Shown: positions 56,864 through 64,000 of the stretch, one piece after another
Layout of the letters: each line of letters opens with the position of its first letter
How positions within the stretch are numbered: the first letter of the stretch is position 1
Assembly (NCBI GenBank): GCA_963786955.1
Contig: CAWBAT010000006.1
Span: 992,001 to 1,056,000, forward strand
DNA from: an uncultured Acidimicrobiia bacterium
GTDB lineage: Bacteria; Acidobacteriota; Terriglobia; Versatilivoradales; Versatilivoraceae
DNA length: 64,000 nucleotides
Direction of reading: 5' to 3'
Notes under the pieces: generated by a model
Seen by the model: only the letters and a program-made list of their open reading frames with translations
What the model was told of the DNA's origin: nothing
The model's database searches: none
Translations under genes and position numbers: made by a program

Positions 56864-57913
56864 ATGAAGATGAACAGATCAAAGAGTGTTTCCCGGCGTG
56901 GGACATGGCTCGTCTGCCTGTCACTTGTTACCCTGATGGTAGCTGTACCCTTTGTGCAGGCACAGACGCCGGCACAAATCGAGTCTGCTCTGAACGCAGC
57001 ATACGCGAAGTACAAGGAACTTCAGGAAGGGAAGAATGCCGACTATATCCCCGCGCTTGCCAAGGTGGATCCTAAGCTGTTTGGGATTGCTATCGTGACG
57101 GCTGACGGGAAAGTGTATACCGTCGGGGATATCACGACGGAGGTCTCGATACAGTCCATTTCGAAGGTGTTTACGATGGCCCAGGTTATCCAGGAACAGG
57201 GCCCTGAGGCCATTGCGCAGAACATCGGAGTGGATGCCACCGGACTCCGGTTCAATTCGATCGTTAGCGTCGAGATCGCGAAGAAGCTCGGGGGAGGACC
57301 GGAGATGAATCCTCTGGTCAATCCGGGGGCAATTACGGCGACAAGTATGGTCAAGGGTGCCAATGCGGAGGAAGTCTGGGCGAAGGTCATCGGGATCGAG
57401 AATGACTGCGCCGGCAGGTCCTTGAGCGTGCTACAGGATATCTACAAGTCTGAATCCGCAACGAACCAGCGAAATCAGGCTATTGGGATGTTGATGTATG
57501 CCTACGAGTACATCAAAGCGAATCCCGCGCAGGCGGTGGACCTCTATACCCGCCAGTGCTCGATCGGCGTCAACGCGAAGGACCTCGCGATGATGGCGGG
57601 AACGCTCGCCTTTGGTGGGAAGAACCCGGTGACGAGGAAACAGGTCATCGATACCCAAAAGGTTCCGTATATCCTCGCTGTCATGGCGACGGCGGGGCTG
57701 TACGATGATAGCGGCAAGTGGCTATATCGGACCGGCCTCCCCGCGAAGAGCGGCGTCGGAGGCGGTATCATTGCCGTCTCACCGGGCAAGTTCGGGATTG
57801 CTGTGGTTTCTCCGCCCCTCGACGAAGCAGGGAACAGTGTCAGGGCGCAGAAGGCGATCACTGACATCTCGAACGCCCTCGGCGGCAATCCATACGCATC
57901 GACAAGGAAGTAA
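56864..57913 (+). CDS. glsA: glutaminase A with N-terminal signal peptide
   Basis: ADYIPAL, IQSISK (SxxK), NPLVNPGAI, YTRQCS and PAKSGVGGG motifs; leader ending VQA. Confidence 0.92.
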   Translation: MKMNRSKSVSRRGTWLVCLSLVTLMVAVPFVQAQTPAQIESALNAAYAKYKELQEGKNADYIPALAKVDPKLFGIAIVTADGKVYTVGDITTEVSIQSISKVFTMAQVIQEQGPEAIAQNIGVDATGLRFNSIVSVEIAKKLGGGPEMNPLVNPGAITATSMVKGANAEEVWAKVIGIENDCAGRSLSVLQDIYKSESATNQRNQAIGMLMYAYEYIKANPAQAVDLYTRQCSIGVNAKDLAMMAGTLAFGGKNPVTRKQVIDTQKVPYILAVMATAGLYDDSGKWLYRTGLPAKSGVGGGIIAVSPGKFGIAVVSPPLDEAGNSVRAQKAITDISNALGGNPYASTRK

Positions 57914-58170
57914 CTGACAAAGCTAGGCTCATTGCGCAAAGAGGCGGTGTCTGGATCGCTGATCAGCCAGCGGTAATTTCTATCCATTGTGTTGTTCCTG
58001 ACCGACTCGAAACGAGCTACCGAGCGCTAAAATAGCTTGCGTTAAATCCACCAGCTATTGGGTAATGCACGCGGCAAATCCCCACCTGCTCGAACAGACA
58101 TCTGGTCAGATCGTAAGTTAGGTCTTGAAGTTTCACCCCACTGAGGGGAAAAGGGTCAGCTGCTTCAGGA

Positions 58171-58187
58171 TTGGCATGAAGTTTGCT
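58171..58187 (+). promoter_or_regulatory. putative sigma-54 (-24/-12) promoter
   Basis: TTGGCATGAAGTTTGCT, i.e. GG-N10-GC with flanking consensus, about 460 bp upstream of dcaP. Confidence 0.5.
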
Positions 58188-58647
58188 ATTGAGTGGAGTG
58201 AGGTATTGTCTCCAGCCGCTCACTTCATGGACGGGATCGCACCAGACGGAATGCGAGCAACGAGATGAAGAAAGCAGGGGTGGAAGTGCCTACATCGGAG
58301 ACGAGAGTCATTGAGAAGAAAACTTAGTTGTTTCAATGGCCTTGACTTTCGGGTGGGCCGATCATTGCTCTGTGCTTTTTTTGGCGGACAGAGGGGCTCA
58401 AACGATCGCCATCAATCCAGACCGACTCATGACTTCCAGGTCAAGATGCTGCCTAGTCCACTCATTCGCTTGGATCTGAATTTGTTGCTTTATGTTACTC
58501 ACCGTGAGGAACCATTGCACCTCGGTTCCTCACTCCCAAGGGATCTAGAGTCCCCGTAAGGTCTATCTGCTAAAAGAGCATTTCAAAATACGGTTGCTAT
58601 CATGAGCGCCAAGGCAAGGTCGGTTTAGTAAGGAGAAAGGAGGATTT

Positions 58648-61938: not shown

Positions 61939-61949
61939 TCTGGAGGTTC

Positions 61950-63443
61950 ATGACGCGTCATCTTTTTTCCTTGCTGGCCGGCGTTATCGGCCTGCTCATG
62001 ATCCCAAGCGTTATTGCCCAACAAACATTCCGGGTGGAAAAGGACCTGCTGGGAGAGAAGCAGATTCCAGCGGATGCCTACTACGGCGTCCAGACCGCGC
62101 GGGCCCTCGAGAATTTTGAAATCTCCGGCGTTCTGATCAATCACTATCCCGGGTTCGTCGAAGCTTGGGCCATCGTCAAATTAGCGGCAGCAAGGGCCAA
62201 CACAGACGTCGGCGCCATGAAACCGGAAACATTAGCTGCCATTGAAAAAGCCTGCCAGGCCGTGCTTGACGGCAAATACCATGATCAGTTCCGGGTAGAT
62301 TGGTACCAGGGCGGAGCCGGAACTTCGACCAACATGAATGCCAACGAGGTGCTCGCGAATATCGCACTAGAGCTCAGCGGGCACAAGAAGGGCGAGTATC
62401 AGTTGGTTGATCCGCACGATCATCTCAATATGTCACAGTCAACCAACGACTCCTACCCCACGGCGATCAAGGTTGCATTTCTTTTGCGGAACAACAAGCT
62501 GATCGAGGAACTGCAGAAGCTGGCGGCTTCTTTTCGGAGGAAAGGGGACGCTTACCTCAAGATCGTGAAGATGGGAAGGACCGAGATGCAGGACGCCGTG
62601 CCCATGACCGTCGGTCAAGAATTTCATGCATTTGCGTCCGCTCTGGAAGGTGAAATCCAGTTGCTGCGGGATGCTGAGAAGTATTTATACTCGGTGAACA
62701 TGGGCGCCACCGCCATTGGAACCGGAATCAACGTCCCCAAAGGATACCCGGAAAAATGCGCGGCCCACCTGGCTAAGTTGACCGGCAAACCCATCGTGCC
62801 GGCCTCTGACATGATTGCTGCCACCTGGGATCAGCAGGGGTTTGTAGTCTATTCCGCGGCGCTCAAGAGCTTGGCCATAAAGCTCTCGAAGATTGCGAGT
62901 GATTTGATCCTGCTCACTTCTGGACCCCGAGCGGGACTGTTCGAGATCAACTTGCCCGCGTTGCAGCCGGGTTCCTCCATCATGCCGGGCAAAGTCAATC
63001 CGGTCCTTCCTGAGCTGATGAATATTGTTGCTTTTCGCGTCATGGGCAATGACTACAGCGTCGGGCTGGCCGCCGACCACGGACAACTCCAGCTCAATGC
63101 CTATGAGCCGCTCGAAGGGCTGGCAGTGATCGAATCACAGAGTCTGCTCTATCGCACTTCCATCGCTTTTCGGACCAAGTGCATCGATGGCATTACCGTG
63201 AACGAAAAAACATTGCAGCACTATATGGAGACCACTGTCGGCATCGTCACGGCGCTCAATCCTATCGTGGGCTATGAAAAAGCAACGGAGCTGGCCGGCG
63301 AAGCTTACAAGAGCGGAAAAGGAATTCTCGAAATCATCCGGGAAAAGAAGGTTCTGTCCGAACAACAAATCCAGGAGTTGCTCGATCCGGTTAAGCTGAC
63401 CGGGCTCGACCCTTCGATGTACGAAAAGAAACCGTCCCAGTAA
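61950..63443 (+). CDS. aspA: aspartate ammonia-lyase with N-terminal signal peptide
   Basis: [30 protein letters not shown] and [11 protein letters not shown] signature; ggagg RBS before [23 protein letters not shown]. Confidence 0.92.
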
Positions 63444-63459
63444 TACAGGAGGTATTATC

Positions 63460-64000
63460 ATGAAACGCAGGTTCCAACCGTTATGGGGAGTTCTCCTCAC
63501 TACTCTTCTCACCGTCTCCGCGCTCGCTGCGGACAAGCTTCCAACTGTCGTCGTTCTCGCGACTGGGGGCACCATCGCCGGAGCGGCAGCGAGCGATGTT
63601 CAGGCGTCCTACACCTCCGGCCAAGTGGGTGTCGAGCAGCTTCTCGCCGCCGTGCCTCAGACGAAGAAGCTCGCTATGCTGCGGGGAGAGCAGATCTCGA
63701 ACATCGGCTCGCAGGACATGAATGACGAAGTCTGGCTGAAGCTGGCCCGCCGCGTTAACGAGCTTACCGCCATGCCGGATGTGGATGGTGTCGTCATCAC
63801 CCACGGCACTGACACCATCGAAGAGACCGCTTATTTCTTAAATCTCGTCGTCAAGTCGAAAAAACCTGTCGTCCTGACCGCGGCCATGCGCCCATCGACA
63901 GCCCTTTCGGCTGACGGCCCGCTCAACTTCTTCAATGCTGTGGCCGTGGCAGCTAACAAGGATGCAGCAGGCCGTGGCGTGCTGGTGGTGGTCAACGACT
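63460..64000 (+). CDS. ansB: type II L-asparaginase, secreted (runs off window end)
   Basis: Not in the ORF track; translates [71 protein letters not shown]. Confidence 0.93.

Follow-up and report, generated by a model that had tools for sequence, protein, structure and literature searches.

The window is a stretch of 64,000 nucleotides (G000:C6:992001-1056000). It comes from a 5.65 Mb assembly of nine contigs that is 93.3% complete, and the named records closest to it are genomes assembled from metagenomes, with labels of Terriglobia and other Acidobacteriota. At its 3' end lie genes for a glutaminase (glsA), a DcaP-like porin, a C4-dicarboxylate carrier (dcu), an aspartase (aspA) and an asparaginase (ansB). 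All five were found on the + strand in this order, as the original prediction had placed them, and the families it had assigned were borne out by Pfam and curated profile scores. The three enzymes begin with predicted export leaders, and it is likely that the region encodes a periplasmic route of amino-acid deamination made up of separate modules that sit together. Actual export, the pairing of substrates with carriers and the purpose of the route are what we infer from the sequences.

Genes of the cluster

The first gene, glsA (56870..57913, + strand), encodes a glutaminase of the glutaminase A type, 347 residues long with an N-terminal leader. It was matched by PF04960 (343 bits) and by NF009020, 'glutaminase A' (429.2 bits against a cut-off of 395). 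The best solved relative was E. coli YbaS (1u60; 302 bits), with query residue 36 aligning from chain residue 6 and the SISKV of the Ser-x-x-Lys motif aligned to SISKV of 1u60. The aspA gene (61950..63443, + strand) encodes 497 residues, again with an N-terminal leader. By family, the protein is a class II aspartate ammonia-lyase with predicted catalytic activity, as seen in its matches to PF00206 (308 bits), PF10415 (67 bits) and NF008909 (654.2 bits, cut-off 510). Solved aspartases scored 520 (6wng), 475 (1jsw) and 470 bits (1j3u), and fumarases scored at most 357. The alignment to the solved aspartases begins at residue 26, and the catalytic SS loop, GSSxMPxKxN, is kept and aligns to the same loop of 6wng and 1jsw. 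This was the only AspA/FumC-type gene found in the window's genome. The third enzyme gene, ansB (63460..64000 and on, + strand), runs past the window to window-equivalent position 64524. Read at full length from the genome, AnsB scored 438.3 bits on TIGR00520 (cut-off 314.3) and 438 bits on the equivalog NF008304, below its cut-off of 506. The match to the type II model, together with a signal peptide, places it among the type II L-asparaginases.

Two genes between glsA and aspA encode putative transport proteins. The product of dcu (60600..~61938, + strand, with the frame broken near 61840) is a carrier of the DcuA/DcuB family, with matches to PF03605 (441 bits) and NF006927 (476.5 bits, cut-off 369). 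The DcaP-like outer-membrane channel gene (58648..60129, + strand) encodes 493 residues and was assigned from a match to PF19577 (76 bits against a cut-off of 27; E 4e-21) and from its fold. By sequence, the protein matched no PDB chain at E<=0.01. An AlphaFold model built from 19 sequences, of moderate confidence with a mean predicted local distance difference test score of 67, has helices at residues 10-26 and 42-74 and a barrel at 122-486. The best solved fold for this model was A. baumannii DcaP (6eus_A; E 1.2e-16, TM score 0.66), and the next porin followed at 2.9e-11. The architecture is thus a signal peptide, a coiled-coil helix, a disordered Pro/Ala-rich linker and a beta-barrel. An N-terminal coiled coil is also a feature of Acinetobacter DcaP.

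The five genes are not evenly spaced. Only dcu, aspA and ansB are tightly coupled, with 11 bases between dcu and aspA and 16 between aspA and ansB. The glsA-porin spacer (57914..58647) has 734 bases with a terminator-like hairpin at 57955-57974, and the porin-dcu spacer (60130..60599) has 470 bases with G+C-rich hairpins at 60303-60333 and 60437-60459. The glsA-porin spacer contained no open reading frame (ORF) with a family match and no Rfam match at gathering score. Likewise, nothing in positions 2000-15000 of L003, the locus record that continues past the window, reached an Rfam gathering score; sub-threshold microRNA-like and 'whalefall-1' matches fell on hairpins only. The porin-dcu spacer is not kept in the same-genus genome G002, although the coding parts are 89% identical. 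Part of its G+C-rich hairpin region (60403-60462) matches three other contigs of G001, the second same-genus genome, at 78-86% identity, in a dispersed pattern like that of repetitive extragenic palindromes. An FNR/CRP-type box was tried and rejected. When 20 kb were scanned with the consensus TTGATNNNNATCAA and up to two mismatches were allowed, 12 matches were found, a number also reached in 17 of 200 shuffles; no match lay in the spacer before dcu.

Export leaders of GlsA, AspA and AnsB

Aspartase, GlsA-type glutaminase and iron-sulfur (Fe-S) serine dehydratase are textbook cytoplasmic enzymes, and class II AspA and GlsA are normally leader-free, with no leader on any solved class II AspA. 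Here, leaders of 23 (AspA) and 31 (GlsA) residues stand ahead of the aligned part. The predicted GlsA signal peptide (56870..56962, + strand, 31 codons) was called from its n/h/c layout and from relatives; after an n-region of basic character comes a hydrophobic run free of charged residues, and then V-Q-A with Gln behind it (...VPFVQA/QTPAQ). The predicted AspA signal peptide (61950..62018, + strand, 23 codons) was called from the Shine-Dalgarno (SD) sequence ahead of it and from relatives. That of AnsB (63460-63528, + strand) was read from the sequence and ends in ...TVSALA/ADK. All three leaders have the basic n-region, h-region and small residues at -3 and -1 of Sec signal peptides, and cleavage is predicted after A31 in GlsA and A23 in AspA.

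Good ribosome-binding sites had been claimed for the three genes, and an SD sequence was found before each leader-bearing ATG. For GlsA, GGAGG lies at 56859-63, 6 bases before ATG 56870. An earlier ATG at 56864 abuts this GGAGG and is therefore unlikely to be the glsA start, leaving ATG 56870 as the likely one; the protein collection holds the identical 347-residue product (P0271). GGAGG at 61942-46 precedes ATG 61950 of AspA, and AGGAGG at 63447-52 precedes ATG 63460 of AnsB. The longest aspA frame, from 61923, was rejected as an artefact that overlaps the true dcu 3' end read in another frame.

Leaders of relatives were scored with a home-made signal-peptide test, which asks for a net positive charge at the N-terminus and, behind it, 10 uncharged residues in a row with a mean Kyte-Doolittle value of at least 1.6. 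The AspA set consisted of the 120 best relatives (84-94% identical). In 116 of them, 20 or more residues precede the EKDLLG core, and 112 of these 116 full-length relatives passed. The four failures (P0076, P0087, P0098 and P0113) have no net positive charge before the hydrophobic window, and P0087 and P0113 look like gene calls that start within the leader. The four left untested (P0042, P0048, P0050 and P0109) are calls that begin 8-17 residues before the core. The control was drawn from the whole aspartase/fumarase family, in which 17,045 proteins matched at E<=0.001. Its 150 best cluster representatives (clustered at 50% identity) included only four that passed, and two of these four (P0122 and P0231) are fragments of the exported AspA clade. 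The GlsA set held 120 relatives (73-100% identical), including 113 with at least 18 residues before the mature part; 111 of these passed, and the remaining seven of the set are gene calls starting within the leader. AnsB relatives also have leaders, as judged by eye.

The leaders were found to diverge in sequence and to keep their layout. Median identity to relatives was 0.30 in the leader and 0.88 in the mature part for AspA (n=116), and 0.29 and 0.79 for GlsA (n=112). A small-x-small site was present in 116/116 AspA and 113/113 GlsA relatives and was directly followed by Gln in 108 and 104 of them, respectively. Leaderless forms were found close by. All six fetched AspA genes from a group of 57-63% identity in the same phylum are leaderless, and the window's genome holds a second glutaminase (contig C5, 41% identical) and a second asparaginase (C9) that have no leader and start at the catalytic domain. 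These results bear out the claim that GlsA, AspA and AnsB begin with signal peptides: the family-wide test, the SD sequences, the divergence and the leaderless controls all point the same way. The GlsA and AspA leaders are accordingly read as real, conserved Sec-type signal peptides and not as start-codon artefacts.

A quick maximum-likelihood tree of 86 rows, midpoint-rooted for drawing only, put the 23 exported AspA proteins in one group with a support of 99 in the Shimodaira-Hasegawa-like approximate likelihood ratio test. The group has a long stem (0.33) and very short internal branches, and it stands beside leaderless relatives, as sister to P0134. Therefore, the AspA leader seems to have been gained once, with strong conservation of the enzyme since. 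Cysteine counts also differed, with three in 114/116 exported-type AspA relatives and a mean of 6.2 in 102 leaderless representatives. This is the direction expected for periplasmic life and is a weak sign of it.

Some further observations were made on these proteins. P0134 has 480 residues, is 47% identical to the window's AspA and has a signal-peptide-like N-terminus; its catalytic loop is degenerate, with ...PTENMPGTVSPV in place of the window's AspA loop, and it may be an exported, catalytically dead paralogue. Another AspA homologue of the same phylum, in locus L113 (G070:C1:1239800-1241700), is 53% identical and has a long in-frame N-terminal extension with no signal peptide. It is probably of the cyclic nucleotide (cNMP)-binding-domain fusion type. 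Gln is the first mature residue of GlsA (56963), AspA (62019) and the DcaP-like protein (58744). This resembles the +1 Gln rule for exported Bacteroidota proteins and hints at an N-terminal pyroglutamate.

A serine dehydratase beyond the window

The DNA beyond position 64000 was inspected, as the original prediction had suggested, and a fourth leader-bearing enzyme that would release ammonia was found there, an Fe-S L-serine dehydratase. Its gene, sda (L003 10758-12408), begins about 230 bases past the end of ansB, with AGGAG ahead of it, and was the only L-serine dehydratase gene found in the window's genome. Past sda, the order is a gene for an anion-type carrier of the major facilitator superfamily (MFS), for which family matches were weak and sub-threshold only, then ackA, pflB (split) and pflA.

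An intact Sda relative in locus L009 scored 405.6 bits on TIGR00720, sda_mono (cut-off 345.1), over residues 98-538, and the C-terminal part of the window-genome Sda is 83% identical to that enzyme. The N-terminal ~97-100 residues, which fall outside the TIGR00720 match, contain CxxCx4CxxC, SRRDLGLAAFASAAATVFASC and a Pro/Ala-rich linker. In the window-genome protein, the twin-arginine motif of SRRDLGLAAFASAAATVFASC is followed by a hydrophobic run and then by a Cys like that of a lipobox. The textbook single-chain Fe-S L-serine dehydratases are not known to have a leader. A twin-arginine (RR) motif in a long leader was present in 11/11 readable Sda frames adjoining exported aspA, with GVDRRTFLMRSAV in the Pyrinomonadaceae-labelled loci. 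Among the 120 best relatives of the L009 Sda, all 120 have a leader of at least 70 residues, 110 have the strict RR pattern, 116 the four-Cys motif and 90 a lipobox after the RR motif. Of the 10 that miss the strict pattern, those listed show RRH, RRE or RRV.

A twin-arginine leader suits Sda because a cofactor-bearing enzyme must cross the membrane folded. The Fe-S Sda would need twin-arginine translocation (Tat), and the cofactor-free GlsA, AspA and AnsB have Sec-type leaders, so the split between the two routes is what would be expected if export is real. The four-Cys motif stands at the extreme N-terminus of Sda (L003 10758-10850, window-equivalent 64757-64849), ahead of the twin-arginine motif.

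Conservation of the neighbourhood

Related loci were collected by a scan with one genome per species, which gave at least 596 matching stretches, of which 579 were confirmed; the best 80 loci were examined. Directly 3' of aspA, ansB was found in 48 of the 71 loci with enough downstream DNA, sda in six and the MFS carrier gene in six. Within 10 kb of aspA, the 80 loci held genes for Dcu (26), DcaP-like proteins (26), GlsA (25), the MFS carrier (21), AckA (19), PflB (14) and Sda (11). Leaders were seen by eye in all 23 neighbouring GlsA frames with a readable N-terminus. The record titles of the related loci span several Acidobacteriota classes. A few are labelled as other phyla; gene transfer or errors in binning may account for these labels.

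In G001 and G002, the porin-dcu-aspA-ansB-sda-MFS block is kept at 75-89% DNA identity, and glsA is not there. Elsewhere, GlsA adjoins a DcaP-like gene in 16 of the 25 loci that have it. The absence of glsA at this place in same-genus genomes and its pairing with a porin gene elsewhere indicate that the exported glutaminase is a movable module, which elsewhere moves with its porin gene. Conserved synteny thus holds in part: ansB commonly follows aspA, but glsA pairs with the porin gene and not with aspA.

A 75%-identical copy of window 58008-58538, in the glsA-porin spacer, was found in G002 about 11 kb from the porin gene. Directly before it lies a stretch of ~460 bases that is nearly free of C (L105 1601-2060, in G002 contig C13 at ~296550-297010), with two C in the first 100 bases and none in the next 300. 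With C collapsed to T, this stretch aligns to the reverse complement of window 57149-57565 in glsA with a score of 86, and the best of 20 shuffles scored 34. A remnant of glsA, inverted and hypermutated, could explain it, as could an artefact of the assembly.

Other genes of the wider neighbourhood were also noted. A DUF3300-DUF2950 pair lies at window 34234-36686 (- strand), 20 kb from the cluster and on the other strand, and also at L009 7440-9964 and L004 16124-18578. A DUF2950 gene is within 10 kb of exported aspA in 22 of the 80 loci, and just upstream in most of the Pyrinomonadaceae-type loci viewed. Upstream of the cluster, the window has two SulP-family carrier genes on the - strand (53383-55077 and 41113-42894). 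The nearer one scored 176 bits on the model of the C4-dicarboxylate carrier DauA, below its cut-off of 614.

Reading frames and assembly breaks

Compared with the intact Dcu of L004, the closest related locus, dcu has a one-base indel near 61840, which puts the last Dcu helix out of frame; the listed ORF stops at 61859. Past the indel, the last 32 residues (...YLLNHSFMLPGLV...LLK*) are read in another frame, to TAA 61936-38, and match the L004 Dcu, which itself covers positions 2-432 of the 433-position profile. Genes dcu, sda and pflB have one interruption each in this assembly, with the sda break at L003 ~11460.

No public sequencing run contained more than 0.10 of the sampled words. Four runs were assembled at 85% likeness and gave short contigs of relatives only, which were used solely for single-base differences at the two frameshift sites. 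These contigs have one base fewer at the dcu (L003 7841) and sda (11459/11462) breaks, in each case in a single low-depth contig, and the one at the dcu break comes from an RNA-library run. In G002, the dcu and sda genes are broken at different positions. Because the relatives' contigs lack the base and G002 is broken elsewhere, the dcu and sda frameshifts are probably assembly indel errors and not signs of pseudogenes. RNA-library contigs cover dcu, aspA, ansB and the 5' part of sda, which is not proof of transcription in this organism. Other split genes in the same DNA, the ATP synthase alpha/beta-type genes at window 43919-50188 (- strand), each in two frames, and pflB at L003 16206-18465, fit frequent indel errors.

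A proposed periplasmic route

In the route that we propose, the DcaP-fold channel in the outer membrane would let in small acidic or amide substrates. AnsB, exported by Sec, would then convert Asn to Asp and NH3 in the periplasm, where AspA, also exported by Sec, would convert Asp to fumarate and NH3, so that Asn passing through both enzymes would release two ammonia. Sec-exported GlsA would convert Gln to Glu and NH3, and the Fe-S Sda, with its twin-arginine and lipobox leader, would convert Ser to pyruvate and NH3 outside the cytoplasm. Dcu would import the fumarate, possibly against succinate, and the neighbouring MFS anion carrier may import pyruvate. In the cytoplasm, class I fumarase, succinate dehydrogenase/fumarate reductase, PflB and AckA could then use the carbon skeletons. 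The window's genome encodes a class I fumarase, a leaderless SdhA/FrdA and two Amt carriers. A periplasmic fumarate reductase was considered as a fumarate sink and rejected. The sole full-length, unbroken FAD_binding_2 frame of SdhA/FrdA type (C8) is leaderless, a second full-length match (C6) is frameshifted and its start also has no leader, and no periplasmic-type fumarate reductase was found among the FAD_binding_2 frames examined in the window's genome.

The original prediction had placed the conversions of Asn through Asp to fumarate and of Gln to Glu outside the cytoplasm, in a set of co-oriented genes. With the leaders conserved, the first part stands as the most likely reading, but the genes are not one unit. 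A single operon was ruled out because the 734- and 470-base spacers contain terminator-like hairpins and glsA is missing at this locus in G001 and G002.

Several results weigh against the proposed route. The spacers argue against joint expression as a single operon, and glsA is off this place in both same-genus genomes, where the GlsA query found only a leaderless paralogue (G002) or nothing (G001). Exported aspartase is a minority trait, if a widespread one in absolute numbers: when 300 genomes were sampled evenly across the phylum, six had an AspA at least 74% identical to the window's. The tally included three genomes flagged as unpublished, none of which is one of the six. On the strict equivalog TIGR00839, AspA scored 618.7 bits, below the cut-off of 681.2 (fumC_II reached only 448). 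The leader calls come from the home-made test and from reading by eye. For Sda, Tat-signal profile hidden Markov models gave no significant match on three leaders, the best being 'formate dehydrogenase region TAT target' at E 0.06-0.14. TatC was not found in the 93.3%-complete assembly with the Pfam model or by tblastn with a same-genus protein; 29 of 30 relatives have it, both same-genus genomes among them, and the window's genome has two TatA/B genes. An oxygen-labile Fe-S Sda in the periplasm would be active under low oxygen only. Finally, the reading frames of dcu and sda are broken in this assembly.

Two rival explanations survive best, and we consider both improbable. One is that the leaders are uncleaved signal anchors, which would tether the enzymes on the outer face of the inner membrane near Dcu and the MFS carrier. 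The hydrophobic runs of 15-20 residues would permit this, and the Sda lipobox would lipid-anchor Sda, which fits a membrane-proximal pathway. However, the runs are shorter than typical transmembrane helices, and the small-x-small site was kept in every AspA and GlsA relative scored, mostly with Gln after it. The other, to which we give the same small chance, is that type II secretion or vesicles carry the enzymes on beyond the outer membrane, where they would work as deaminases outside the cell. Sec or Tat export is the first step of both of these routes, but a channel gene adjoins glsA in most loci that have it and inner-membrane carriers lie in the same clusters, which fits catalysis between the membranes. 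No secretion-system genes were seen in the annotated flanks.

It is very unlikely that unrelated exported proteins lie together here by chance, with no pathway to join them. The long spacers and the absence of glsA at this place in same-genus genomes would agree with it, but the same gene set surrounds aspA in many lineages and in several orders, and what each enzyme makes is used as a substrate by the next one or by a carrier family encoded nearby. Least probable of all is that the leaders are annotation artefacts and that cytoplasmic enzymes, started at an internal Met (MIPSVIA... in AspA, MVAVPF... in GlsA), work with a DcuA-type aspartate importer: both hydrophobic stretches do contain in-frame Met codons, and E. 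coli aspA and dcuA are neighbours with a cytosolic AspA (bioRxiv 10.1101/2021.03.01.433382), but the internal codons, which were checked as the finding that would speak against export, have no SD sequence where the upstream starts have GGAGG, their Met is not conserved in relatives while the n-h-c layout is, and the form that cytoplasmic N-termini take in these genomes can be seen in the leaderless paralogues and relatives.

If the periplasmic route operates, more than one purpose is conceivable. We give about an even chance to a harvest of carbon and electron acceptors from amino acids, with the ammonia left outside. Nitrogen scavenging through Amt is roughly half as probable, and periplasmic acid buffering is less probable still. 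The recurrent ackA, pflB and MFS neighbours suggest that low-oxygen harvest of carbon and electron acceptors is no less likely a purpose than buffering or nitrogen supply. More broadly, we lean slightly towards the view that many soil and sediment diderms use the periplasm as a compartment for the catabolism of free amino acids. This compartment would hold a once-evolved exported AspA, GlsA, a Tat-exported, lipid-anchored Sda and AnsB behind a DcaP-like channel, with the skeletons imported and the ammonia released outside, and it would represent an undescribed form of nitrogen mineralisation.

If these enzymes are periplasmic, models of amino-acid uptake, Dcu function and ammonium release by abundant soil and sediment bacteria would need revision, and metagenome reconstructions that treat the reactions as cytoplasmic would be mistaken about the transport that they require. 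Among periplasmic cofactor enzymes, an Fe-S lyase exported by Tat would be unusual. The exported aspartase clade, with its long stem and at least 74% identity across many lineages, appears to be a clean natural example of an enzyme that changed its compartment a single time and has varied little since.

Comparison with known systems

The nearest known system is that of Campylobacter jejuni, in which secreted AnsB and GGT deamidate Asn and Gln in the periplasm, uptake proceeds via DcuA/DcuB, DctA and Peb, and AspA acts on imported aspartate (PMC4178425). The suggestion that the cluster has no described equivalent was therefore too strong, since periplasmic deamidation with Dcu uptake is known there. 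As in C. jejuni, a Sec signal would put asparaginase catalysis in the periplasm, and ansB, aspA and dcu genes occur together. In contrast, the window's AspA itself has an export signal, whereas the second deamination of C. jejuni is cytoplasmic, and the glutaminase is of GlsA type rather than GGT. With AnsB and Dcu present and AspA leader-bearing, the cluster does not belong to the Campylobacter type of system, which combines periplasmic AnsB and Dcu with cytoplasmic AspA. Neither an exported serine dehydratase nor a dedicated DcaP-like channel is described for C. jejuni in the accessible part of that paper (PMC4178425).

In E. coli, AspA is cytosolic and has a reported interaction with DcuA, and DcuA/DcuB exchange L-aspartate or C4-dicarboxylates (bioRxiv 10.1101/2021.03.01.433382; PMC10634366). 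The window shares with E. coli aspA-dcuA the neighbouring genes and the carrier and enzyme families. Unlike in E. coli, AspA is leader-bearing here, so Dcu would mainly meet periplasmic fumarate and not aspartate. E. coli YbaS (GlsA1) works with GadC in cytoplasmic, Gln-dependent ammonia release for acid resistance (PMC3641589). YbaS is the closest solved relative of the window's GlsA, and the chemistry of ammonia from Gln is common to both, but the window's GlsA begins with a leader of 31 residues and its relatives stand beside a porin gene, and no gadC was seen next to it. In a paper on Brucella, GlsA is treated as part of GadC-linked acid resistance, and the signal-peptide prediction there concerns BMI_II339.

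The DcaP-like protein resembles A. baumannii DcaP (6eus) in its Pfam match, its best fold and the N-terminal helix ahead of the barrel in the model, but identity over the fold alignment is 16%. The four classes described for Acinetobacter do not include the DcaP proteins of other genera, and the di-/tricarboxylate function is known only from Acinetobacter proteins (PMC12338516). Sda matches TIGR00720 like other members of sda_mono and differs from them in its ~97-residue leader with CxxCx4CxxC, twin-arginine motif and, mostly, lipobox.

In open-licence full text and bioRxiv, no report of an exported aspartase was found, and a description in a subscription journal is possible. No report of an exported GlsA-type glutaminase was found in the same sources, which were partly judged by titles, or of an exported serine dehydratase in the open-licence literature, judged from titles and the starts of abstracts. 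Taken together, the enzyme families, the export routes and the logic of periplasmic deamidation are known; what is undescribed is the predicted relocation of an aspartase, a GlsA-type glutaminase and an Fe-S serine dehydratase. The window is notable in that all four deaminating enzymes are encoded in one neighbourhood.

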